The notes beneath the pieces were generated by a model. It worked only from the letters and a program-made list of their open reading frames with translations. It made no database searches and was not told where the DNA came from. A DNA stretch of 64,000 nucleotides from a virus (taxonomy: Duplodnaviria > Caudoviricetes), in the IMG/VR virus record IMGVR_UViG_3300009680_000012, positions 438 through 64,437 of that record. One strand, written 5' to 3'. Numbering within the stretch: position 1 is the stretch's first letter; every line of letters begins with the position of its first letter. The position numbers and the translations under genes are program-made. Positions 555 to 63,936 of this stretch are shown here, piece after piece.

Positions 555-1760
555 GTGGCTATGAAAGGGATACCCCCGGACTTTGACCATGACGAGTTCT
601 GTAAAGCTGTGGCTGTCATAGTTAGGTTTAGTAAGAGTGGTTTTGTGGGAGATTACAATGTGTTTAAGAACCATGCGGATAGTATTGTGGGGTATAAAGT
701 TGTACAAAAACTACATAGTAGAACAATTGGTAGGTTGCTGGTTTTTAATAAGGAAAAATTATACCAGGAGTATCGAATTAAGCTGCACTTATTTAGACAT
801 TCAGGGAAAAGTTACATGCGGTTAAACTTTGCTAGTGAGGCGGGAGAACTTAAAGTTGTGCAGGATTTCGCTAGAAAGTTTCCACAGGGGCGCGGTAGAC
901 CGCGTAAACTTTGGGGAAGAACCAATATGAAGGAACAAAGAGACAGTGTTAGGCCGTATAAACCGTTAGTTAACGCTATTGTTTATATGTCAGAGCATGA
1001 TTTTGAGAGGGTGTGGGTAGGAAGGGTTAGTGAGTTGTGGGACGAACTTAATCAGATGCCGGGAGTCAGGGAACAGATGAAGGAGATTTATCCGGCTAAC
1101 CCACAAGTATTAGGAAAATATTTGAGAAAAGAAGCCGTTAAACATGAACTTGAGTTTAGGGGGGTTGAGTTAGAGTTTAAAAAAGTTACGGCTTCGAGAA
1201 GGAGGATACTTTACTTTTACAATAGGTTTAGGAGCGTTACAGATAAGTTAATAAGTCAAGCGGTAGAGGATTACGCCAACAAATTAGCCAGTGAAATATG
1301 GGAAGAAAAGAGAAAACCCAGGAAAAAAGTGAGAAAACCACCAAAGCACCCGGAGAAAAGCTTTGATGAACGGTTTGGTTTGCAGGCATACGTTGAGCCG
1401 CTACCGAAAAGCCGGGCAAACCCTGTGGAAACCGAAGAAGACCTTCCGAAAAGACGGGTAAAACCAGTAGAAACAGTGGAAGAGCTGCCTAAAAGGAAGG
1501 TTAAGCCACTTGTGGAGGAAGAATTACCCCGTAGAAGGGAGGATTTACCACCATTAATACCGAATTTTCCGGTTGCTGGAGAAGAACCGCCCCGGAAAAA
1601 GAAGAAAGAAGGTGCTAGTTTTGATTGGATGAAGTTTATGCAGGATCAGTACGCCGATGACCAGAAGTTTGAGGTTATAATTGACCCGGAATTGGCTAAT
1701 CACCCGGATAAAGACAGGATTATGGCAGAGTTAAAAGAGGAAAAGAGTAAGGAGGTTTGA
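555..1760 (+). CDS. Putative tandem winged-helix DNA-binding protein with low-complexity C-terminus
   Basis: WVGRVSELWDEL..YPANPQVLGKYLR..L..RGVELEF..RRRIL resembles wHTH domains found at the end of phage primase/helicases; repeated EELPKR(R/K)VKP units in the C-terminus. Confidence 0.5.
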   Translation: MAMKGIPPDFDHDEFCKAVAVIVRFSKSGFVGDYNVFKNHADSIVGYKVVQKLHSRTIGRLLVFNKEKLYQEYRIKLHLFRHSGKSYMRLNFASEAGELKVVQDFARKFPQGRGRPRKLWGRTNMKEQRDSVRPYKPLVNAIVYMSEHDFERVWVGRVSELWDELNQMPGVREQMKEIYPANPQVLGKYLRKEAVKHELEFRGVELEFKKVTASRRRILYFYNRFRSVTDKLISQAVEDYANKLASEIWEEKRKPRKKVRKPPKHPEKSFDERFGLQAYVEPLPKSRANPVETEEDLPKRRVKPVETVEELPKRKVKPLVEEELPRRREDLPPLIPNFPVAGEEPPRKKKKEGASFDWMKFMQDQYADDQKFEVIIDPELANHPDKDRIMAELKEEKSKEV

Positions 1761-2861: not shown

Positions 2862-3143
2862 GTGAATGGTTATAGTAAACAAGATTTGTTAGGTATGCTT
2901 GAAGCAAAGAACCAACAGTTAGACGGCATTACGAAAACAGCCAATAGTTTAGTTAATTCTTTGATAGCATTCATTTTAATGGCTAACCCCAAAGACTTGA
3001 TGTTAGTTATTGACCCCAAAAATTACCCAGACATCAACAAATATCGACTTGAGTTTACTATCACAGACGAAGGTTACATGATGTATCAAGTTATACCGCC
3101 ACCAGACAAACCCCCCAAAAGTAAAATTATTCTACCTAATTAG
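2862..3143 (+). CDS. Hypothetical protein
   Basis: AAGGAGG RBS before the GTG at 2862. Confidence 0.7.
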   Translation: MNGYSKQDLLGMLEAKNQQLDGITKTANSLVNSLIAFILMANPKDLMLVIDPKNYPDINKYRLEFTITDEGYMMYQVIPPPDKPPKSKIILPN

Positions 3144-3147
3144 TAGG

Positions 3148-3175
3148 CACATTTGTAATACTTCTGCATATACTA
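3148..3175 (+). promoter_or_regulatory. Sporulation sigK/sigE-like promoter of the parM operon
   Basis: AC(3149-50)-N16-CATATACTA(3167-75) matches the sigK-type AC-N16-CATANNNTA consensus; followed by palindrome TAGTGTA-N7-TACACTA (3178-3198). Confidence 0.45.
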
Positions 3176-3211
3176 TGTAGTGTAAAAGTAATACACTAAA
3201 GGAGGTTACAA

Positions 3212-4084
3212 ATGGAGTATATCGGTATTGATGTAGGACGGCACACTACCAAGGCGGTAGGGGATAATGGTATTGTATATACCTTTCCCAGTAAAGTGGG
3301 TAGTGCCAGGGACTTGCGGTTGGATAGTAATTTGGATTATTTGGTTAATATTGAGGATACTGATTACTTTGTGGGCTGGTTGGCAGAAGAGGCCAGGGAT
3401 AAACGGGAAATGGCGAGTGCCAGTAAGTTGCATGATGAAACCAGGATACTTTTCCTAACTGCTTTCTGTCTGGCTTCTAATCGGGGCAGTCTTAATAATC
3501 CTTTGGTTACTGTGGGATTACCCATTGCACAGCGTACCCCGGAGAACAAAACCAAGTTACAAGAACTGCTTAACGGAGTGTGGGAGGTACAGGTAGGCGA
3601 TAAACCAGCTAAACTGTTTACCAATAACAATGATCTGGTTATTGTGGCCGAGGGGGTTGGTGCTTGGTTTGACCTGTTGCTGGATAACCAAGGAAGGATT
3701 AAGAATGAATCTTTGTTAGAGGTTCCGGTTATTAGGATACTGGATTTGGGGAGTCGTATGTTTAACTACTGTACCATATTAAAGGGCAGGGTACATGACC
3801 TGGACAGTGGCAGTTTAAACTATGGGTACATGGAAATGGAGCATGGGGATATCGTTGCGGAAGCGTTGGCTCGGAGACTGTTTGCTGACCTGACTAAAAG
3901 AATATCTTCCCTTAATAGGAATGATATGGTAATACTTTGCGGTGGTGGAGCATATAATATGAAAGAAGCGTTGGGGCAATACTTTAGTCAGTTAAAGTTA
4001 GTAGATGATCCGGTTACTACCAATGCCAAAGGTTACAGAAAGTTGGGAATTGTTTATGCCAATCAGAAAGGTAATCTACTTTAA
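3212..4084 (+). CDS. parM: ParM/StbA-family actin-like partition ATPase
   Basis: IGIDVGRHTTK (phosphate 1), VAEG (connect), ILDLGSR (phosphate 2), LCGGGA (adenosine) actin-fold motifs. Confidence 0.9.
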   Translation: MEYIGIDVGRHTTKAVGDNGIVYTFPSKVGSARDLRLDSNLDYLVNIEDTDYFVGWLAEEARDKREMASASKLHDETRILFLTAFCLASNRGSLNNPLVTVGLPIAQRTPENKTKLQELLNGVWEVQVGDKPAKLFTNNNDLVIVAEGVGAWFDLLLDNQGRIKNESLLEVPVIRILDLGSRMFNYCTILKGRVHDLDSGSLNYGYMEMEHGDIVAEALARRLFADLTKRISSLNRNDMVILCGGGAYNMKEALGQYFSQLKLVDDPVTTNAKGYRKLGIVYANQKGNLL

Positions 4085-4286
4085 TGACCGTGATCCGGTG
4101 TTACTGGAACACATTAAACGTCAAGAAAACTTTAGTGCTTACATTAGACGGTTAATATTACAAGATTTGCATAACAATGATCTTCGTACTATTTTAAGGG
4201 AAGAACTTAAACATCTGACGTTAACAAACGATGTGGAGAGTAAGTCTATTAAACTGCCTAAGTATTTGTTGGATAACGTTTTCTAA
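4056..4286 (+). CDS. ParR-like ribbon-helix-helix adaptor
   Basis: Overlaps the parM end; RKVIYFN..D..LLEHI...NFSAYIRRLILQD is an RHH pattern typical of ParM partner proteins. Confidence 0.7.
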   Translation: MPIRKVIYFNDRDPVLLEHIKRQENFSAYIRRLILQDLHNNDLRTILREELKHLTLTNDVESKSIKLPKYLLDNVF

Positions 4287-4299
4287 GGAGTGACAGCAA

Positions 4300-4506
4300 T
4301 TGTGGAAACAGTACATACTATATCTAGTACGTTGGCAATTAAGTACCCCAATACTTGCTATAGTTATGGTGTACTTAGCTTACCTGGGGGAATGGCGCGC
4401 AGCAGTTATTAGTAATTTAATAGGGGGTTTAATCTTTTTCTGGTTGGATAGGCTAATATTTACACTAGGGGGTACACATGGAAACAGTGCTATTGGTAAA
4501 AGATGA
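4300..4506 (+). CDS. Small membrane protein
   Basis: Two hydrophobic segments; AAGGAG RBS. Confidence 0.7.
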   Translation: MWKQYILYLVRWQLSTPILAIVMVYLAYLGEWRAAVISNLIGGLIFFWLDRLIFTLGGTHGNSAIGKR

Positions 4507-4624
4507 CAGTTTACCGTCGGGGGGTGTGTTGTTTGTTGACGTAATGCTTTTTTGGGGTAAATACTTGGACAAGGATGACAAGCTAAAGAGTGTTTTACTT
4601 TATAATTTTTAAGGAGGTGTCTTT

Positions 4625-5002
4625 GTGAAAACAAGCGAAATGCTGGCAATGATTGAGAAGAATCCTGCACTAAGGTTCAGGGATGCTAACGGTAAAGTAC
4701 AAGATATAAGGATAAATATTATTGGAGCTATTATGCATCCTGATGGATCGTTGGCTGAGCTTAATAGTAGTTTTATGTATGCTGATTGGATAATAATTCA
4801 AAAATCTGTAACATGGCCGGAAGCTGTACACGCCTGGGTTTTTGGCGAAAAAACAATACGTTGCGAACTTAATGATGTAGGTAAAGGTACTACCAGTACG
4901 GTTTATAAAAAGTCTAAGGGTACGTTACAAGATACATTTGGATGCGCACCTACTAGAGAAGAAATAAGGAATGGTGTTTGGTACATAGAAGAAGATTGTT
5001 AA
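4625..5002 (+). CDS. Phage hypothetical protein
   Basis: AAGGAGGTG RBS and GTG start. Confidence 0.75.
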   Translation: MKTSEMLAMIEKNPALRFRDANGKVQDIRINIIGAIMHPDGSLAELNSSFMYADWIIIQKSVTWPEAVHAWVFGEKTIRCELNDVGKGTTSTVYKKSKGTLQDTFGCAPTREEIRNGVWYIEEDC

Positions 5003-5015
5003 GGAGGTGATGCCC

Positions 5016-5054
5016 ATGCCAAACGGAATACCATATCCCACAGAAATATTGTGA
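5016..5054 (+). CDS. Candidate 12-aa micropeptide MPNGIPYPTEIL
   Basis: Perfect AAGGAGGTGA RBS at 5001-5010, ATG at 5016, TGA at 5052-5054. Confidence 0.45.
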   Translation: MPNGIPYPTEIL

Positions 5055-5086
5055 CTACGCCACCACAGCCTAACCACAATCATCCA

Positions 5087-5115
5087 GCATAGTGTTCTTA
5101 AAACTGAGCATACTA
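5087..5115 (+). promoter_or_regulatory. Forespore sigG-like promoter of the SASP gene
   Basis: GCATA(5087-91)-N17-CATACTA(5109-15) matches the sigG consensus GHATR-N17/18-CATWHTA. Confidence 0.6.
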
Positions 5116-5135
5116 TACCCAGGAGGTGAGGAAAG

Positions 5136-5306
5136 CTGAGTAATCAGCAATTGGATAGGCTGAAAGCGGAGGTACTGCAATCTACGGGTATAGGAAGTAA
5201 GGTAAGGGATGGTTACTGGGGGAACGTGCCATCTAAGGATTGTGGGGCTGTCGGTGGCGAAATGGTTCGGCGAATGATTGCGTTTGCTTCACAGAATATG
5301 CGGTAA
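5136..5306 (+). CDS. Alpha/beta-type small acid-soluble spore protein (56 aa, CTG start)
   Basis: Hand translation LSNQQLDRLKAEVLQSTGIGSKVRDGYWGNVPSKDCGAVGGEMVRRMIAFASQNMR contains the SASP signatures (L(K)xE(V/I) and GYWGxxxSxxCGxVGGxMVRRMI); AGGAGGTG RBS; an in-frame stop just upstream forces the CTG start; missed by the ORF track. Confidence 0.9.
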   Translation: MSNQQLDRLKAEVLQSTGIGSKVRDGYWGNVPSKDCGAVGGEMVRRMIAFASQNMR

Positions 5307-5309
5307 CTT

Positions 5310-5336
5310 TAAAGGGGCAGGTTAACTGCCCCTTTA
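5310..5336 (+). terminator. Hairpin terminator after SASP
   Basis: TAAAGGGGCAG-GTTAA-CTGCCCCTTTA, 11-bp perfect stem. Confidence 0.7.
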
Positions 5337-5354
5337 GTCTGGAGGTATGAGGTT

Positions 5355-5747
5355 GTGCGAGGAAACACGCATATTTGGTTTGGGGTTAGCTCAGCCCTTC
5401 TTTTATTTCATCCCCCCTTGTGGAGTTACGCTCTAGTTGGTTTGGGTTCTTTGTTACCTGACGTAGATCACAAGAACAGTCCGGTAGGTATTCTTCCCTG
5501 CATTAAGCACCGTACAGTCACACACTCTTTGTTAGCCTGTGGGTTGGCCTTACTCATTAACCCCTGGTTGGGGTTGGGGTATGTGTCTCATGTTTTGCTT
5601 GATATGCTTAATCCTACTGGATGCCCCCTACTGTGGCCTTACACCAAGAAATTTAGTGTTGGTAGTATCAAAACCGGGAGTAAGGTCGAAACAATCTTTC
5701 GTAACGGTTTGAAGATGATTATGCTTACCATAATCCTTTTTCCTTGA
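5355..5747 (+). CDS. YdjM-like membrane-bound metal-dependent hydrolase
   Basis: MRGNTH, GSLLPDVDH, HRTVTHSL, SHVLLDMLNPTGCPLLWP motifs. Confidence 0.9.
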   Translation: MRGNTHIWFGVSSALLLFHPPLWSYALVGLGSLLPDVDHKNSPVGILPCIKHRTVTHSLLACGLALLINPWLGLGYVSHVLLDMLNPTGCPLLWPYTKKFSVGSIKTGSKVETIFRNGLKMIMLTIILFP

Positions 5748-6396
5748 TGTTAGCTATTGTTTTCACCACAAAGGTAAGCCCTTCCACATTTTCACTTTCG
5801 ATTTTGTTGCTGATGGCTTTGGCGCGTTTGTCGGTGGTAGTTACTATGTATATAATAGGAAACAATTCACCCTGGACTGCGTACTTGGTATCTAACCAAA
5901 CATCTGTTCGATAAAGTTCTGTGTACTTCTGGATTTTGTCAAACTTACTCAGGGCCACTGTTCCGAGATCAGTTTCCAAGAATAGGGTTCTTCTTTTATC
6001 CAGGGTAACTTTGAGAACCACAAAGGCATCTGGTTGTATCTGTCCACTATTCCATTTAAGACATGGCTCTAATTCAAAGGTTTCAATGCTTTGCCAGGAG
6101 TTTTTATGGTTCTCAGTTGCTACGTAAACCTCATTAATGCTCAGCCAGTGGTGTACTTTGAAACTGGGTTTACCTTCATGGACGTAGTAGACGTATCCCA
6201 ATTCTTTGGCCAGATAGTACCTGTTAATGTACTTTCTTTCATACAGACTTTGTAGTTTTCTTCTGGATAGACGCAGGCTTTGTGACTTCTTACCATATAC
6301 CATATCAGCCACATGTTTACTGGTTAGGTAGCTGTGGTTACTAAGCAGGTCAACAATTTGCATATCATAATTAAATCCCTTCTGGTAATTGTTCAT
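5725..6396 (-). CDS. Replication-relaxation (Replic_Relax) family protein
   Basis: N-terminal wHTH (LTSKHVADMVY..RRKLQSLYERKYI), HWLSINEVY, PDAF..FLETDLGT..KIQKY motifs. Confidence 0.8.
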   Translation of the reverse strand: MNNYQKGFNYDMQIVDLLSNHSYLTSKHVADMVYGKKSQSLRLSRRKLQSLYERKYINRYYLAKELGYVYYVHEGKPSFKVHHWLSINEVYVATENHKNSWQSIETFELEPCLKWNSGQIQPDAFVVLKVTLDKRRTLFLETDLGTVALSKFDKIQKYTELYRTDVWLDTKYAVQGELFPIIYIVTTTDKRAKAISNKIESENVEGLTFVVKTIANIKEKGLW

Positions 6397-7225
6397 GGGT
6401 TAGAATTCCTTTCCTCCTTTGCTTAACATTTTCTGGTGCTGTCTTTTCCACAATAACTTTGGCTTTGTTAAGCCAGTTAAGAGCTTCTTCTTCCTCCAGG
6501 TAGATGGTTTGAAATTCGGTTTGCGTTAAACCATGTTGCAGGATACCCCTGCCGGGGAGGGCTGGTAATTCTGCGGCGAAATCTCCGTCAGTAACTATTT
6601 GGGAATTGATACGGTTGCGTACCCTGAAAGCTACGGTAACTGGTATATTGGCTTTGATGTACCCCGGTAAGGAATCCTTATCCGGGCGTTGGGTACAAGC
6701 TATTACGTGAATTCCAGCGGCCCGGCCTAGTCTGGTTATTCTATCCAGTTCATTATGGAAAGCCAGCTTCATTCTTTTGACATCAGCCCGAGGTTCTCTT
6801 GTACCGATAGCGAATTCAGACAGTTCATCAATCACTACAATGTGGTGTGGTATCTGGGTCATTCTAGTGCAATACTTATCAATGCAGGTTACTCCAGCTT
6901 CTTCAAACATAGTGTATCTACCATCTATTTCCTGGTTTATGTCTGATAGAGTATTAATGGCCGTGGTTAGGCTCAAGGCCACCTTTTCTGTGTGTACGGT
7001 ATTTTTGAAAATCGACAATTCTACTTTTTTGAGGTCTATCAGATGTAGTTGCACCTGCCTTGGGTTGTACGTCAGTAGTAAGTAAGTTAGCAACTGTCTT
7101 AGGTAGGTACTTTTTCCAGCCCCGGTCAGCCCGGCTACTAGAACGTGACAGCTTGTGGGTTTGGTTATGTCGATTACTTTTACGCCTTTTCTGGTTAAGC
7201 CGATAACTAGATATAAGTTTTTCAT
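6371..7225 (-). CDS. FtsK/SpoIIIE-family ATPase domain
   Basis: HVLVAGLTGAGKS (Walker A), LIDLKKVEL, VVIDELSE (Walker B), LGRAAGIHVIACTQRP. Confidence 0.95.
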   Translation of the reverse strand: MKNLYLVIGLTRKGVKVIDITKPTSCHVLVAGLTGAGKSTYLRQLLTYLLLTYNPRQVQLHLIDLKKVELSIFKNTVHTEKVALSLTTAINTLSDINQEIDGRYTMFEEAGVTCIDKYCTRMTQIPHHIVVIDELSEFAIGTREPRADVKRMKLAFHNELDRITRLGRAAGIHVIACTQRPDKDSLPGYIKANIPVTVAFRVRNRINSQIVTDGDFAAELPALPGRGILQHGLTQTEFQTIYLEEEEALNWLNKAKVIVEKTAPENVKQRRKGILTHEQLPEGI

Positions 7226-7694
7226 TGTTGCTGTTTCTTAACACCTCCGCTAGTTTTTGGTCAAACTTAATTTGATCCGGGAGTTCCCCTACCGCAGCAG
7301 AAATTTTAAGCCGTCTACCCCGGACACTGAATTGTAATTCTGAACAAGTGTTTTCTTCCAGTACCTTGCGTTTCTTTTCAAAGTCAGCCAGGGATAACCC
7401 GTAGGGTAGCATGTAAACTAACTCCCAACCGTAAGCAGTTTTCTTTTTCTTCATTAGTTTAGGAGTTTTCTTGACTCCATTAACTTCTTTAGTTAGTTCA
7501 GAATATTTCATAGATTCACGCATACGCCGGGTAAAAGGAGCATACTTGTGGTTAATGTAAGATACCCCGATCCCAGTTAAGATACCTGCCCCGGTACACT
7601 TACTAAAATAGGTGCTTAAAGTGTGGGGGCTGTTGTTCCAGGTAGTAATCCAGTAATCATACAGACTAGGAGCAGTTAAGAAAGTGAAATCCAT
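6954..7694 (-). CDS. N-terminal (membrane anchor/alpha) part of the FtsK-like translocase
   Basis: Hydrophobic N-terminal segment and ELVYMLPYGLSLADFEKK..LE motif; runs 272 nt into the ATPase gene in another frame. Confidence 0.55.
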   Translation of the reverse strand: MDFTFLTAPSLYDYWITTWNNSPHTLSTYFSKCTGAGILTGIGVSYINHKYAPFTRRMRESMKYSELTKEVNGVKKTPKLMKKKKTAYGWELVYMLPYGLSLADFEKKRKVLEENTCSELQFSVRGRRLKISAAVGELPDQIKFDQKLAEVLRNSNNEKLISSYRLNQKRRKSNRHNQTHKLSRSSSRADRGWKKYLPKTVANLLTTDVQPKAGATTSDRPQKSRIVDFQKYRTHRKGGLEPNHGH

Positions 7695-7695
7695 T

Positions 7696-7785
7696 TTACC
7701 ACCACCAATCATCCACAATGTGGAATACTGTGTAGCTCATAGTTAGGTACCAGATAAAGCCTGAAATGATGTATTCAGTGGGCAT
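7696..7785 (-). CDS. Small hydrophobic peptide (29 aa)
   Basis: AGGAGG RBS; MPTEYIISGFIWYLTMSYTVFHIVDDWWW; stop abuts the next ATG. Confidence 0.55.
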   Translation of the reverse strand: MPTEYIISGFIWYLTMSYTVFHIVDDWWW

Positions 7786-8053
7786 TTTTTAATTCCTCCT
7801 TAACTTTTTTAATAACGGCATTGTCATAACGATCCTTGGAGTTAAAGACTTTTCCGTTTTCAAACTTGACAGTTATTCCTTCAGTAGTTTTTTCTATGAT
7901 AATTGGCCCTTTGATTTTTTCTTTGTAAATTATGTAACCAGTAGTGGGGCTGGATAATTCTACTTGAACCGCTTTAGGGTAATAGCAATTGTTAATAACT
8001 GTCATTATCTGTAGTCCAGCAGCTAATACTAAAATTGGCATAGCTTGGTACAT
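7775..8053 (-). CDS. Hypothetical protein with N-terminal signal/TM segment
   Basis: AGGAGGG RBS; hydrophobic N-terminus. Confidence 0.65.
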   Translation of the reverse strand: MYQAMPILVLAAGLQIMTVINNCYYPKAVQVELSSPTTGYIIYKEKIKGPIIIEKTTEGITVKFENGKVFNSKDRYDNAVIKKVKEELKNAH

Positions 8054-8198
8054 AGTGTTTTTATTTTTCCCTCCTTTCTGTTCAACATTTCCTTTTATAG
8101 TTTTGAAATAAGCTCATAACACCCCCAATAAAACAGCATCTAGTATACCTTTTAAAAACAATGTTAAATAGAAACTACTTCATATATTTAGGTATTAC

Positions 8199-8227
8199 TA
8201 CATTATGTGTTTTGTAGCTAAAGTGTT
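8199..8227 (-). promoter_or_regulatory. Sporulation sigK/sigE-like promoter of the FtsK/Replic_Relax operon
   Basis: Minus strand AACA-N16-CATAATGTA matches mACm-N16-CATANNNTA. Confidence 0.45.
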
Positions 8228-8255
8228 AATGTACCTTACAGGTATTTTAAGGAAA

Positions 8256-8281
8256 TAAAAAAGCCTGGATTTCTCCAGGCT
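8256..8281 (-). terminator. Intrinsic terminator
   Basis: AGCCTGGA-TTTC-TCCAGGCT with an A-run on the plus strand (U-tract on minus). Confidence 0.8.
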
Positions 8282-8294
8282 AAGTCTTATTAAA

Positions 8295-8438
8295 TTAACT
8301 GTGTAAAATTTGTACAGTACCATCTTTTTTAATATGCATTACAATTGTGCAGTTTGTACACAACCAACAATCTAAATTTTTATATCTACACTTGATCATA
8401 CCTTGTCCACAATAGTAACAAACAGGAGTATCAGACAT
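8295..8438 (-). CDS. Small zinc-ribbon protein
   Basis: CYYC...CTNC; AAAGGA RBS. Confidence 0.6.
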   Translation of the reverse strand: MSDTPVCYYCGQGMIKCRYKNLDCWLCTNCTIVMHIKKDGTVQILHS

Positions 8439-8835
8439 TATCAACCGTCCTTTCCTGAATGAGTTGAATAAAACCATGTATACTATAATTAGCTAAATCA
8501 AGCCACGTATCTGCAATAGTTTCATCAGGTACACTATTATCATTACCCTCCCAAACACAATTTTGAATCCTAGCTAGTTTATCTTTAGCTCGAACAAAAA
8601 CACCTTTTTGCCCTAACTCAGATATATTTCTGTAACCGTAAGAAGAATTTTTCTGTATCATCAATTCCTGTAAACCCTGTAAGATATAATCTAATAATTT
8701 CCCGAAGTGTTCGGGGTTGTTGGGATTTAGTTCCTTTATCTGAAGCATCAATTTCTCGGTTACTGTTTTCTGCGTTTGCGTCATTTTCACGTATTTCTCC
8801 AGAGGCATACAAGGTCCTATTGGGTTTTGATTCAT
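8431..8835 (-). CDS. DUF1599 / nucleotide-modification-associated domain (MazG-like fold)
   Basis: KNSSYG..GVFVRAKDKLARI..ETIADTWLDLANYS. Confidence 0.75.
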   Translation of the reverse strand: MNQNPIGPCMPLEKYVKMTQTQKTVTEKLMLQIKELNPNNPEHFGKLLDYILQGLQELMIQKNSSYGYRNISELGQKGVFVRAKDKLARIQNCVWEGNDNSVPDETIADTWLDLANYSIHGFIQLIQERTVDNV

Positions 8836-53279: not shown

Positions 53280-54212
53280 TTATGCAGCGATTAACTCGTA
53301 GGCTTTATCTATTAACACATGCCCATCAACCGTTTTCATAAACAGATTCTCCCGGAAGGTGTCTGTTTTTCTTAGCGGTTGAATGTGGGTGGCGAAATCA
53401 CTTACTGCATTAACAAAACCCCAGGCTGTGTCTTTGAATTTACCTAAATCCGGGGCTTCAGTATACCGGGACAACAAGCCGGTTCTAAGATCAATAACGT
53501 TACGCTCTTTAACTGGTCCGGCATCTTCTGGTATTGGTAACAGTTGTTCAATCAAGTCCTCAACTTCAGCCAAATAAAGTGTCTTATTAGCCAGGGACTC
53601 TGCTTCTTTACCAAAGGAAACCAGATACCTCTCAGACAAGCCTAGCGTCCTCTGTGCTTCGTGCATTTTAGCCGCTATATCTCCAGTATGCCGAACGGAC
53701 CAACTACGCTGTGCGGTCCTCAGAGCAAGGTTTAAGGTGTTCATACAGATAACTCTTACAGGTGTGACTGCAACCTTAACTGCACCAGTACCGTCATGGG
53801 TATTACTGAACACCAAAAACACTTGGGTAACATCACCTAAAATATTTTGGTCAGGCATTCTGGCTAAAAGCCATACCCTTCTACCAGAGGATAAGCTACC
53901 AGCAGTTTCGTAACGTACATCCCCACCAACAAGGTGATCTGTAAACGCAAAGGCTTCATGGTTCTGCACTACCCGGTATTGGTCAGAAACCAAACCCAAA
54001 ACACGGCGGTCAGAGCTACGAATATTTAGCTTATACCCCGGAACATCAGTAAAGTAGTTATCATTCTTAATGAAAACATCTTCCTGGATTACCTGCCAAT
54101 TTAACCCGGATAATCTTAATGCGTCCATACTGTTAACGGCTCCGGCTACAGAAGAACCTAAACCATCCCAAGGTGTTCTCCTGGCATCAAACATAGTATC
54201 CAATCTACTCAT
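53280..54212 (-). CDS. DUF932 / TIGR03299 phage-plasmid-like protein
   Basis: R..PW.GLG..V, YRVVQNHEAFAF, YETAGSL..GRRVWLLA, HDGTG...TPVRVICMNTL, RHTG, TAWGFVNAV. Confidence 0.9.
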   Translation of the reverse strand: MSRLDTMFDARRTPWDGLGSSVAGAVNSMDALRLSGLNWQVIQEDVFIKNDNYFTDVPGYKLNIRSSDRRVLGLVSDQYRVVQNHEAFAFTDHLVGGDVRYETAGSLSSGRRVWLLARMPDQNILGDVTQVFLVFSNTHDGTGAVKVAVTPVRVICMNTLNLALRTAQRSWSVRHTGDIAAKMHEAQRTLGLSERYLVSFGKEAESLANKTLYLAEVEDLIEQLLPIPEDAGPVKERNVIDLRTGLLSRYTEAPDLGKFKDTAWGFVNAVSDFATHIQPLRKTDTFRENLFMKTVDGHVLIDKAYELIAA

Positions 54213-54291
54213 TACAAAACCCCCTTTAAGTAATTGCAACTAACTAAAAGTAACAGCAGTATTCTATAAGCAACACCACCTTACGTAAACT

Positions 54292-57724: not shown

Positions 57725-58081
57725 CTAAAAACCCTCACACATTGCCAGCACCCTAAACGCGTCCCCAATCGCATTATACAAGTGCTTTCGTTTAGCATGA
57801 ATTTGTAAACGAGTAGTATTATCGCAGTATATAACTTCCCAAGTCTGCTTTAGAGTAGCCCGAATATCTTGCCGCAGTAAATATGATGCATCAGCAGAAA
57901 GCATACTTGGTCTTATTGTAATTAAAACCAAACCAGTATCATCAGCAAGCGGAACCAAGTCTACCCGGTAGCGACCAATCCTACCAAGAAAGTAGGCCGG
58001 GCTATACTCACAGAACTTCTCTTTAGCAAGGTTATATTCCTGCAAAAATATACTTACATCCACTTCATTATCCCTCCCCAT
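57725..58081 (-). CDS. Hypothetical protein
   Basis: Overlaps the phosphatase stop. Confidence 0.65.
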   Translation of the reverse strand: MGRDNEVDVSIFLQEYNLAKEKFCEYSPAYFLGRIGRYRVDLVPLADDTGLVLITIRPSMLSADASYLLRQDIRATLKQTWEVIYCDNTTRLQIHAKRKHLYNAIGDAFRVLAMCEGF

Positions 58082-58877
58082 GTATGCTTATATATTCTTT
58101 GCAAGCAACTGCATATTTTAATACATCGTCAGCACCTTTGTCTTTGAGGAAACAAGTACCCCGCCACTGTGATGTAGCGGTAAAAAACACACAGTTGTTG
58201 CAACGGTTTTCGGTAACTGTTTTAGTAGCACCATAAGAATAACCCCAATCGTCGCCATAACCCCAAGAGGTAAAATCATCTAAGCCATAACTACGAAAGC
58301 CCATTATCCTAGTGGGTTTGACGTACAGTTCCTTAATCTCAGGCATGTTTAATACTTCTGCTATGTGGTCCCGTTGTTCTGCGGTTTCTACTGCTTCTTC
58401 ACAGTAGTTTTTCCGTAGAAAAGTAACCGGGTCAGGGTCGATCTGGCCTAGCATACCCAACACCACCGCAGTAAAATACCCGGTTCTACCATGACCACCT
58501 AAGCAGAAGATACCTACATTTAATCCAGCCTGTACCATACGGGTTACTTTATCTGCCTTACTTTTAAGCACATCTTCAGGCAGTATATCGTAATCCTCTA
58601 TTGGCACATACATAATTTCACCACGCCAGTTAGTATCCCATACCCTACCATCTAAACTGTCTAAGGGTACGAGAACATCCACCGGAACATCTAAGAAGTC
58701 CCGGTAATCTCGGTTCTTACCCACAAATAGATGTGGATAAATTTCGGTTATCCCTTTGTGACAGTCCGCGTAGGTTTTATCCCTCGATTGCTCTGTATCT
58801 GAATTTAGTGTCGTATCTTTGGACTGGCCCAATGTTTGGTGTCTTTTTCTCTTTAGGTTGTATTTTCGTCGGCTCAA
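58068..58877 (-). CDS. Dual-specificity/protein-tyrosine phosphatase (CX5R)
   Basis: IYPHLFVG, PIEDY (general acid), IFCLGGHGRTG P-loop, AVETAEQ; AAGGAGGTG RBS. Confidence 0.9.
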   Translation of the reverse strand: MSRRKYNLKRKRHQTLGQSKDTTLNSDTEQSRDKTYADCHKGITEIYPHLFVGKNRDYRDFLDVPVDVLVPLDSLDGRVWDTNWRGEIMYVPIEDYDILPEDVLKSKADKVTRMVQAGLNVGIFCLGGHGRTGYFTAVVLGMLGQIDPDPVTFLRKNYCEEAVETAEQRDHIAEVLNMPEIKELYVKPTRIMGFRSYGLDDFTSWGYGDDWGYSYGATKTVTENRCNNCVFFTATSQWRGTCFLKDKGADDVLKYAVACKEYISIHGEG

Positions 58878-62954: not shown

Positions 62955-63061
62955 ATCACACCACAAACCCACAAGCTGTAGTACCGTAGTACCGTAGTAC
63001 CGTAGTACCGTAGTACCGTAGTACCGTAGTGTCTTAGCATCTTGTGGTCTTGTGGTGTGAT
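62955..63061. repeat. (GTAGTACC)x6.6 tandem array flanked by a 21-bp inverted repeat
   Basis: Array 62978-63030; arms ATCACACCACAAACCCACAAG (62955-75) and CTTGTGGTCTTGTGGTGTGAT (63041-61), 19/21 complementary. Confidence 0.85.
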
Positions 63062-63592: not shown

Positions 63593-63858
63593 TCAAAAGT
63601 CCTCCCTTAAACTTAATTTTAAACCAGGGTACTGGCTACTCACTGTCCGCCTCCCCGATTTGCTGGCTCCATCATGCCACCCCGACGGAAAGTCCGCAAC
63701 GTATCGCCCCGCAACGTCCGAGTTTTCGGCGTTTCCGGACGACGCACCGCGACGCATTGCGACCCCGATCTGGCACTTGGTTGACATAATGACCAGGGTA
63801 TCCCGGTCGGTATCGCGATCCGGCCTAGGGTGCTAAAGCCACAGGTGAGTATGTGTAC

Positions 63859-63936
63859 TATTTCCAGAAATTAGGTTGTCTATTTCCAGAAACTAGGTGA
63901 ACTATTTCCAGAAACTAGATATTTTATTTCCAGAAA
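63859..63936 (+). repeat. Four TATTTCCAGAAA repeats with exact 22-bp period
   Basis: Copies at 63859, 63881, 63903, 63925; core TTTC-CA-GAAA is palindromic. Confidence 0.9.

Follow-up and report, generated by a model that had tools for sequence, protein, structure and literature searches.

The question raised by positions 3148-8227 of a 64,000-nucleotide stretch of tailed-phage DNA (hereafter, the window, which covers nearly the entire 64,437-bp virus record IMGVR_UViG_3300009680_000012) is whether the genes for ParM-type partition (ParMR), an alpha/beta-type small acid-soluble spore protein (SASP), a YdjM-like hydrolase, an FtsK/SpoIIIE-type motor ATPase and a Replic_Relax-like nuclease that lie here side by side work together in sporulation. 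A reading made from the sequence alone (hereafter, the sequence-only reading) had proposed that they form a sporulation-timed island, in which ParMR and the FtsK/Replic_Relax pair are expressed from mother-cell promoters, the prophage is nicked, positioned and pumped, and the SASP protects it. We lean towards a different view, namely, that the region is a mosaic accessory stretch of three separate, ordinary cassettes (ParMR; the SASP gene with its sigG-type promoter; and the FtsK/MOBC-like pair). The claim of one sporulation-controlled island does not hold.

The gene content and the convergent layout described in the sequence-only reading are borne out by Pfam and PHROG matches. The plus arm encodes, in this order, ParM, a ParR-like protein, a membrane peptide of 68 amino acids (aa) with two helices, a 125-aa protein, the SASP and the YdjM-like protein; the minus arm encodes a 92-aa protein with an N-terminal hydrophobic helix, the FtsK/SpoIIIE-type ATPase and the 223-aa Replic_Relax-like nuclease. 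The terminal genes of both arms share 23 bp. Of the two convergent operons that had been proposed, the convergence stands, but a single plus-arm operon is not evident: gaps with promoter-like sites precede both the 125-aa gene and the SASP gene, and the plus arm probably consists of several transcription units.

The FtsK-like gene is located directly upstream of the nuclease gene in every related locus that could be placed, usually with overlapping ends, and the two genes overlap in the window as well (6371-6396). The nearest relatives belong to integrating prophages, where the pair either has the lysis cassette on one side and the gene of a serine or tyrosine recombinase on the other, or directly follows the recombinase gene; BtCS33 has the same layout. 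Neither ParM, SASP and YdjM nor any of the small proteins of the window were found beside the related pairs, some of which have flanks of only ~1.5 kb; hence the island is not a conserved unit, and the co-occurrence of FtsK, Replic_Relax, ParM and SASP expected under the sequence-only reading did not materialise at these loci. A prophage that is integrated enters the spore as part of the chromosome, so the main task of the pair cannot be to pump episomes into the forespore. The same pair is present in integrating prophages and in lytic phages, and we take its role to be independent of sporulation.

Promoters, hosts and the link to sporulation

A motif resembling the sigK consensus (AC-N16-CATAtacTA) lies ahead of parM at 3149-3175 (+), where the promoter scan found no sigA-like promoter. 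At the head of the minus arm, a promoter-like site at 8199-8229 (-) fits both the sigK motif (AC-N17-CATAatgTA, 8199-8226) and sigA, the latter with TTAACA-16-CATAAT, a 10/12 match that overlaps the sigK motif. Thus, the motifs described earlier as sigK/sigE-like arm promoters are indeed there, but they occur at chance frequency: across the window, AC-N16/17-CATANNNTA has four matches on the plus strand and four on the minus strand, against 3.4 and 3.7, respectively, expected from shuffles, and the remaining six copies are inside genes, mostly antisense. Furthermore, the minus copy is equally sigA-like, and none of 17 related FtsK/Replic_Relax loci has a sigK-, sigE- or sigG-type pattern in the stretch of at most 1.2 kb that precedes the motor domain. 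The sigE reading of both arm promoters was rejected by eye since the -35 regions do not fit, and the word ATGTAGT, common to the two promoter regions, is not enriched. In the sporulation cascade, sigK is active only after engulfment, which is too late for pumping across the septum.

The SASP gene is the only part of the region with a real link to sporulation. Its product, which starts at 5136 (CTG) or 5151 (TTG) and ends at 5306 (+), matches PF00269 (7.1e-17; 61.6 bits against a cut-off of 22) over profile positions 12-59 of 59, and a ribosome-binding site (RBS), GGAGGTG, is found at 5122-5128. The sigG-like promoter of its own that had been attributed to this gene is confirmed: GCATA-N17-CATACTA at 5087-5115 (+), ~20 nt upstream of the SASP start region, is the single match to the sigG pattern GHATR-N17/18-CATNHTA in the 64-kb window, both strands included. 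A GC-rich hairpin with a weak T-run 3' of the gene (5314-5332, +), seen in the sequence and not called by the terminator scan, is a partial terminator at most. Given its promoter and family, the SASP gene would be read as a monocistronic unit in the forespore, where the protein would coat all DNA, phage DNA included, and the YdjM gene may be transcribed by read-through from the SASP promoter.

The sequence-only reading asked whether the module is confined to spore-former hosts, and for the FtsK/Replic_Relax pair this is very nearly the pattern that was recovered. Among the 105 phage records detected with the Bacillus-type nuclease, 97 are from Bacillus, 6 from Geobacillus and 2 from 'Staphylococcus', so that 103 are phages of spore-formers, and all 124 plasmids with the Bacillus-type pair come from the spore-forming genera Bacillus, Priestia, Brevibacillus, Geobacillus or Cytobacillus. 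However, a Bacillus seed was the starting point of these searches, and common descent accounts for the distribution no less well than function. The Staphylococcus label of one record (OR670591.1, 'Staphylococcus phage MVC_VPHSA1') is doubtful because its Replic_Relax protein shares 77.6% identity with the one of Bacillus mycoides phage Anath and its genome resembles those of Andromeda-like Bacillus phages; the FtsK-like gene of this record is annotated as two coding sequences. In a sample of 401 genomes, all 14 with a match also carry a SASP, against a base rate of 331/401 (p ~0.07), a comparison without power. A Listeria record with an FtsK match was set aside as uninformative, being an unverified 4-kb contig that encodes a 779-aa protein. 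Homologues of K03466/spoIIIE have been reported to be enriched in phages of spore-formers (PMC10294663), and the proposal that segregation genes help phages to become trapped in spores is already in the literature (Schwartz 2023; PMC10294663, PMC4113786).

The nuclease and the motor in two frames

The Replic_Relax/MOBC-like protein (5725-6396, -; phrog_9381, 1.3e-16) consists of an N-terminal winged helix and a PD-(D/E)xK nuclease fold, and the PHROG families that it matches are annotated as nicking or replication initiators. PF13814.12 produced no match to the 223-aa protein at E-values up to 10, and a search of the phage's own genome with PF13814 also yielded none; however, a precomputed PF13814.13 label exists for this protein, and relatives have 'faint' PF13814 matches, hence we call it Replic_Relax-like. 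An exhaustive HMMER search identified 158 relatives of the nuclease, the best ones ~30% identical. In an alignment of 40 relatives, D123, E141 and K154 are invariant, and the AlphaFold (AF2) model built on this alignment has a pLDDT of 94.4. Foldseek comparisons matched the C-terminal half to the restriction-endonuclease-like proteins VC1899, FokI, Can2, McrC, HamA and XisH, and the N-terminal part to BlaI/MecI winged helices. A winged helix joined to a restriction-endonuclease-like domain is the architecture of MOBC relaxases, such as CloDF13 MobC and pAD1 TraX (PMC5357655, PMC3357382), and PF13814 is the MOBC family of CONJscan, with a compact gene order of coupling protein, relaxase and integrase (PMC5357655). 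Searches by tblastn with the window nuclease and two relatives against phages and plasmids gave no match, a word-index search returned the query alone, and PADLOC had no family for the nuclease and only generic matches for the ATPase. With this locus, the nuclease family gains a divergent branch of clostridial type, for which the fold model is confident.

A further FtsK/Replic_Relax pair was observed in a contig assigned to an 'Archaeoglobus sp.' metagenome-assembled genome (JACDNU010000044.1), with a nuclease 45% identical to the Bacillota family; the contig was probably mis-binned and is of bacterial or phage origin.

From the fold, the catalytic residues and the coupling of the two genes, an action of the pair can be proposed. 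The Replic_Relax/MOBC-like protein would most likely bind and cut or nick a specific site of the element, and the FtsK-like hexameric motor would then move that DNA. In our view, the element would handle its own DNA in this way, much as in conjugation or segregation and without a tie to sporulation.

The FtsK/SpoIIIE ATPase had been described as one gene, and this part of the earlier description has to be revised, as the N-terminal part (frame A; 6954-7718, -) and the motor (frame B; 6371-7225, -) are in two reading frames. The motor matches PF01580 (1.2e-26; 94 bits against a cut-off of 24) and phrog_1358 (6.8e-68), with Walker A (GLTGAGKS) and Walker B (VVIDE) motifs in the translation. Positions 485-579 of phrog_1358 match the open reading frame (ORF) of the N-terminal part, and positions 586-840 match that of the motor. 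The frames meet at AGA AAC AGC AAC AAT GAA AAA CTT (7214-7240, -), where the reading shifts by +1 from the N-terminal frame into that of the motor. In relatives of 373-422 aa encoded by a single ORF, which include matches to FtsK_N, homology is colinear across this junction.

Colinear homology split between frames is what a frameshifted pseudogene in an inactive remnant cassette would look like, and the distance of 16 nt between the nearest Shine-Dalgarno-like sequence and the ATG at 7225 and the lack of a stimulatory RNA fold after the junction, where the RNA is less structured than shuffles, are in line with such decay. We consider it very improbable, nevertheless, given the behaviour of the gene in an independent strain. 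A contig of strain X2, from a 2025 wastewater run and ~1.2% diverged, spans 6344-8500 without gaps and has the same two-frame arrangement with no indel, which also means that the arrangement is not an assembly error. The strain differences listed are synonymous in 13 of 15 cases in the motor and in all three in the N-terminal part; judged by this substitution pattern, both parts are under purifying selection. Moreover, the N-terminal frame runs on for 89 codons without a stop inside the motor gene, whereas that relative frame in other genes of the phage has 0.123 stops per codon and a run of this length at none of 13,102 positions. Given the amino acid sequence of the motor and the codon usage of the genome, the stop-free overlap has P = 5e-4.

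The overlap differs from the rest of the motor gene in other respects, too. Codons ending in T are depleted in it (11/90, vs 52/194 after the overlap), and only one of the listed strain differences falls within its 272 nt, vs 14 in the next 583 nt. With two frames both under purifying selection, the motor would be expressed either as two polypeptides or by recoding. The overlap possibly encodes the overprinted basic tail of a split gene, or else reflects +1/-2 recoding. The two-frame motor with its long stop-free overlap may thus prove to be a case of recoding or overprinting.

Nor is this protein the membrane-anchored translocase of the sequence-only reading. No 19-residue window within the N-terminal 170 aa reaches a Kyte-Doolittle mean of 1.4, which leaves it with no clear transmembrane (TM) helix; no gamma domain family is among the Pfam matches, and the protein stops ~45 aa after the motor. 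Going by these features, the FtsK-like protein differs both from the membrane-anchored pumps of the SpoIIIE kind and from a typical TcpA. Close relatives of the motor were not found in IMG/VR, and a word-index search with the ORF of the N-terminal part returned the query alone.

Partition genes, the phage and the remaining features

ParM (3212-4084, +) is readily recognised by ALP_N (2.7e-19; 70.3 bits against a cut-off of 26.3), phrog_691 (partition protein; 5.6e-44) and a partial ParM equivalog match, and has the actin-fold ATPase characteristic of type II partition. Directly downstream, a product of ~77 aa (~4056-4286, +) is ParR-like by its position, with an unnamed PHROG (phrog_14312, 6.3e-8) as the sole match and a ribbon-helix-helix (RHH) assignment that comes from sequence pattern only; the ORF as listed begins at 4005, overlapping the 3' end of parM. 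The parM promoter and RBS are flanked by a 9-bp perfect inverted repeat, CATTTGTAA/TTACAAATG (3150-3214), which has three exact copies in the window, two of them at this site, and is possibly a ParR operator. Where a type II system would have the repeats of its centromere (parC), this inverted repeat is the only one seen beside the parM operon. Near the other end of the record, there are a perfect array of 6.6 copies of the 8-mer GTAGTACC (62978-63030) and a 22-bp array of 3.6 copies (63858-63936), both at least 3.7 kb away from the operon; these are candidate binding sites for ParR or for the Replic_Relax-like protein. As members of a type II family, ParM and ParR would push copies of an episome apart in dividing cells, and, if the pushing is directed towards the poles, one copy would end up in the polar forespore as well. 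A 401-aa protein without a family is encoded at 555-1760 (+), shortly before the partition genes; a 42-nt tandem repeat in this gene (1404-1495) codes for repeated PKRRVKPVET-like units.

The virus record has a CheckV completeness of 100%, and no end repeats were found in its 64,437 bp. It comes from a bioreactor metagenome, with near-identical copies in wastewater and anaerobic-digester runs of other studies, among which no RNA run was listed; no DNA-level relatives were detected among 50,697 phage records, including for the stretch 3000-8400. The phage encodes its own replication and nucleotide genes, namely, a family A DNA polymerase (PolA), a helicase, a primase-helicase, an exonuclease, a Sak4 annealase, ThyX and MazG, such that the pair is not needed as a replicon, and it has a Mu-like large terminase. 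Among the phage ORFs scanned, there is no integrase, and no type IV secretion system (T4SS) families turned up. The presence of ParMR without a detected integrase fits an episomal lifestyle, and the extrachromosomal phage of the sequence-only reading is in agreement with this. The host is probably an uncultured, anaerobic, spore-forming member of Bacillota. As part of the joint explanation that we somewhat favour, the phage would be a non-integrating (plasmid-type or carrier-state) tailed phage that carries the region as a mosaic accessory stretch. Among its early genes, 53280-54239 (-) and 58068-58877 (-) encode a DUF932 protein and a protein with a weak, below-cut-off match to dual-specificity phosphatase domains.

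The other genes of the two arms can be described briefly. The 68-aa protein (4300-4506, +) has two hydrophobic helices and belongs to no family; a 38-nt stretch of its gene (4318-4355, +) recurs, with five mismatches, in otherwise unrelated contigs from two other metagenomes. The 125-aa protein (4625-5002, +), also without a family, is encoded by the gene that varies most between the two strains, with nine differences listed, five of them non-synonymous; none of the differences listed falls in 5000-5720, which covers the SASP gene and most of the YdjM gene. The latter (5355-5747, +; PF04307, 8e-21; phrog_27171) encodes a protein similar to YdjM-family membrane metal-dependent hydrolases. The first gene of the minus arm encodes the 92-aa protein with the N-terminal TM or hydrophobic helix (7775-8053, -). 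A hairpin called by the terminator scan at 8262-8281 ends the upstream minus-strand genes and marks the outer limit of this arm.

Competing readings and known systems

Several observations weigh against three ordinary cassettes. Two of the eight sigK-motif matches are located exactly at the two arm heads, which has a chance of ~0.05 by our rough estimate, although the coincidence is less unusual given the AT-rich composition of intergenic DNA and the choice of the motif after the fact. That the named carriers of the Bacillus-type pair are almost all from spore-formers would agree with a role in sporulation as well, the current Pfam model of PF13814 misses the nuclease of the window, and a conjugation-like route finds neither a T4SS family among the ORFs scanned nor a TM anchor in the motor. 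Motifs and hosts are also the main assets of the sporulation-timed island: besides the sigK-consensus motifs at both arm heads and the sigG-type promoter of the SASP gene, it can draw on the presence of the Bacillus-type pair in 105 phages, of which 97 are from Bacillus and 6 from Geobacillus, and in plasmids that are all (124/124) from spore-forming Bacillales, on the SASP carried by all 14 matching genomes of the 401-genome sample, and on the enrichment of spoIIIE homologues in phages of spore-formers, for which entrapment was proposed (PMC10294663). We still regard this island as unlikely, because the sigK motif is at chance frequency, with one site equally sigA-like, and is missing upstream of the 17 related pairs, and because the motor, in two frames, has no TM anchor or gamma domain. 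Activity of sigK only after engulfment tells against the island as well, as do the relatives in integrating prophages, where ParM and SASP do not co-occur with the pair, whereas the 401-genome test is powerless and the host restriction may reflect descent from the Bacillus seed. The FtsK gene of phage Fah belongs to the delayed-early class during lytic growth, and the sigA holoenzyme transcribes the early and late genes of that phage (PMC4113786). With chance-level promoters, no anchor and relatives in integrating prophages, the notion that FtsK/Replic_Relax nicks an episome and pumps it across the sporulation septum is mostly unsupported.

A spore-inheritance kit of an episomal phage, in which ParM would park one copy at the pole, an FtsK-like motor, made by recoding across the frame junction, timed by the mother cell and guided by Replic_Relax, would rescue the copies left outside the forespore, and the SASP made in the forespore would protect the DNA, appears to us quite unlikely; if true, the restriction of the pair to spore-formers would reflect function rather than descent. 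A different function altogether, that of an anti-phage or anti-plasmid exclusion system made of the FtsK-like ATPase and the PD-(D/E)xK protein in the accessory slot of a temperate phage, is suggested by relatives located between lysis genes and integrase, a common accessory and defence slot, by the similarity of the nuclease fold to Can2, HamA and McrC, and by matches of the motor to the SspH and mad8 models. However, PADLOC has no family for the nuclease, the ATPase matches are those of a generic P-loop protein, and a published profile comparison groups the nuclease with MOBC relaxases (PMC3357382), which makes exclusion a poor candidate. Three separate cassettes are the reading that accounts best for the region. 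The pair itself is present in at least 100 Bacillus-type phages and at least 100 plasmids, and its bias towards spore-formers among named records keeps the entrapment idea alive.

The closest counterparts of the pair are known. The statement that no function is assigned to it holds experimentally, but a 'DNA translocation operon' of phage 0305phi8-36 that comprises genes for a MobC-type relaxase, a translocase and membrane proteins together with an actin-like gene was reported as early as 2012 by Pathria et al., with relatives in SPO1, GBSV1 and Gamma/Wbeta/Fah; deletion of this operon has no effect on laboratory growth, so that it is non-essential (PMC3357382). In Bacillus plasmid prophages, the pair often adjoins partition systems (PMC9658697, PMC11526630). 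As in the window, a MobC-type nuclease adjoins an FtsK-like ATPase in the 0305phi8-36 operon (orf200/201/203/207; PMC3357382) and in BtCS33, Andromeda-like phages and Bacillus plasmid prophages (PMC9658697, PMC11526630), and the likeness extends to a small membrane protein upstream, an actin-like or partition gene nearby and an accessory position. Unlike these pairs, the one described here has a nuclease that shares only ~30% identity with the nearest relatives and escapes the current Pfam model, and a motor in two frames; it also converges on a SASP/YdjM cassette and belongs to a phage of an uncultured digester host.

MOBC modules of other elements (CloDF13 MobC, pAD1 TraX and class 8 of streptococcal integrative and mobilizable elements (IMEs), with TcpA-type ATPases; PMC5357655) likewise have an ATPase gene followed by a relaxase gene, often next to a recombinase gene, and their relaxases combine a winged helix with a restriction-endonuclease-like catalytic domain, as does the nuclease of the window. 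In contrast to TcpA and VirD4, the ATPase described here has no TM segments; no T4SS genes were seen among the ORFs scanned, and in the streptococcal IMEs, MOBC is paired with VirD4 rather than with an FtsK-like protein (PMC5357655). With the SpoIIIE/FtsK translocases, the protein shares the RecA-like motor domain (PF01580) preceded by an alpha-like subdomain, but it lacks the four-helix membrane anchor, the linker and the gamma domain for polar sequences, and is ~450 aa in two frames instead of ~790 aa.

The partition genes resemble the ParMR systems of the Bacillus plasmid prophages IEBH, Bp8p-C and B83 (PMC11526630, PMC8026635), in which an actin-like ATPase is likewise followed by a small RHH or helix-turn-helix adaptor in a tailed phage; the ParM of the window is ~30% identical to the Bacillus phage ParM-like proteins, and the plasmid state of the phage is a prediction. 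Alpha/beta-type SASPs of Bacillus phages (phi18, Goe19, BSP7/BSTP) and of gut phage contigs are, as here, products of a single accessory gene with a short SASP domain. Phage SPbeta carries sspC, another phage-borne SASP. Compared with the known phage SASPs, the one described here is ~35-43% identical, has a perfect sigG consensus promoter and is found on a ParM-bearing phage in which no integrase was detected; for a phage SASP gene preceded by a forespore-type promoter in such a genome, the locus is a clean example.

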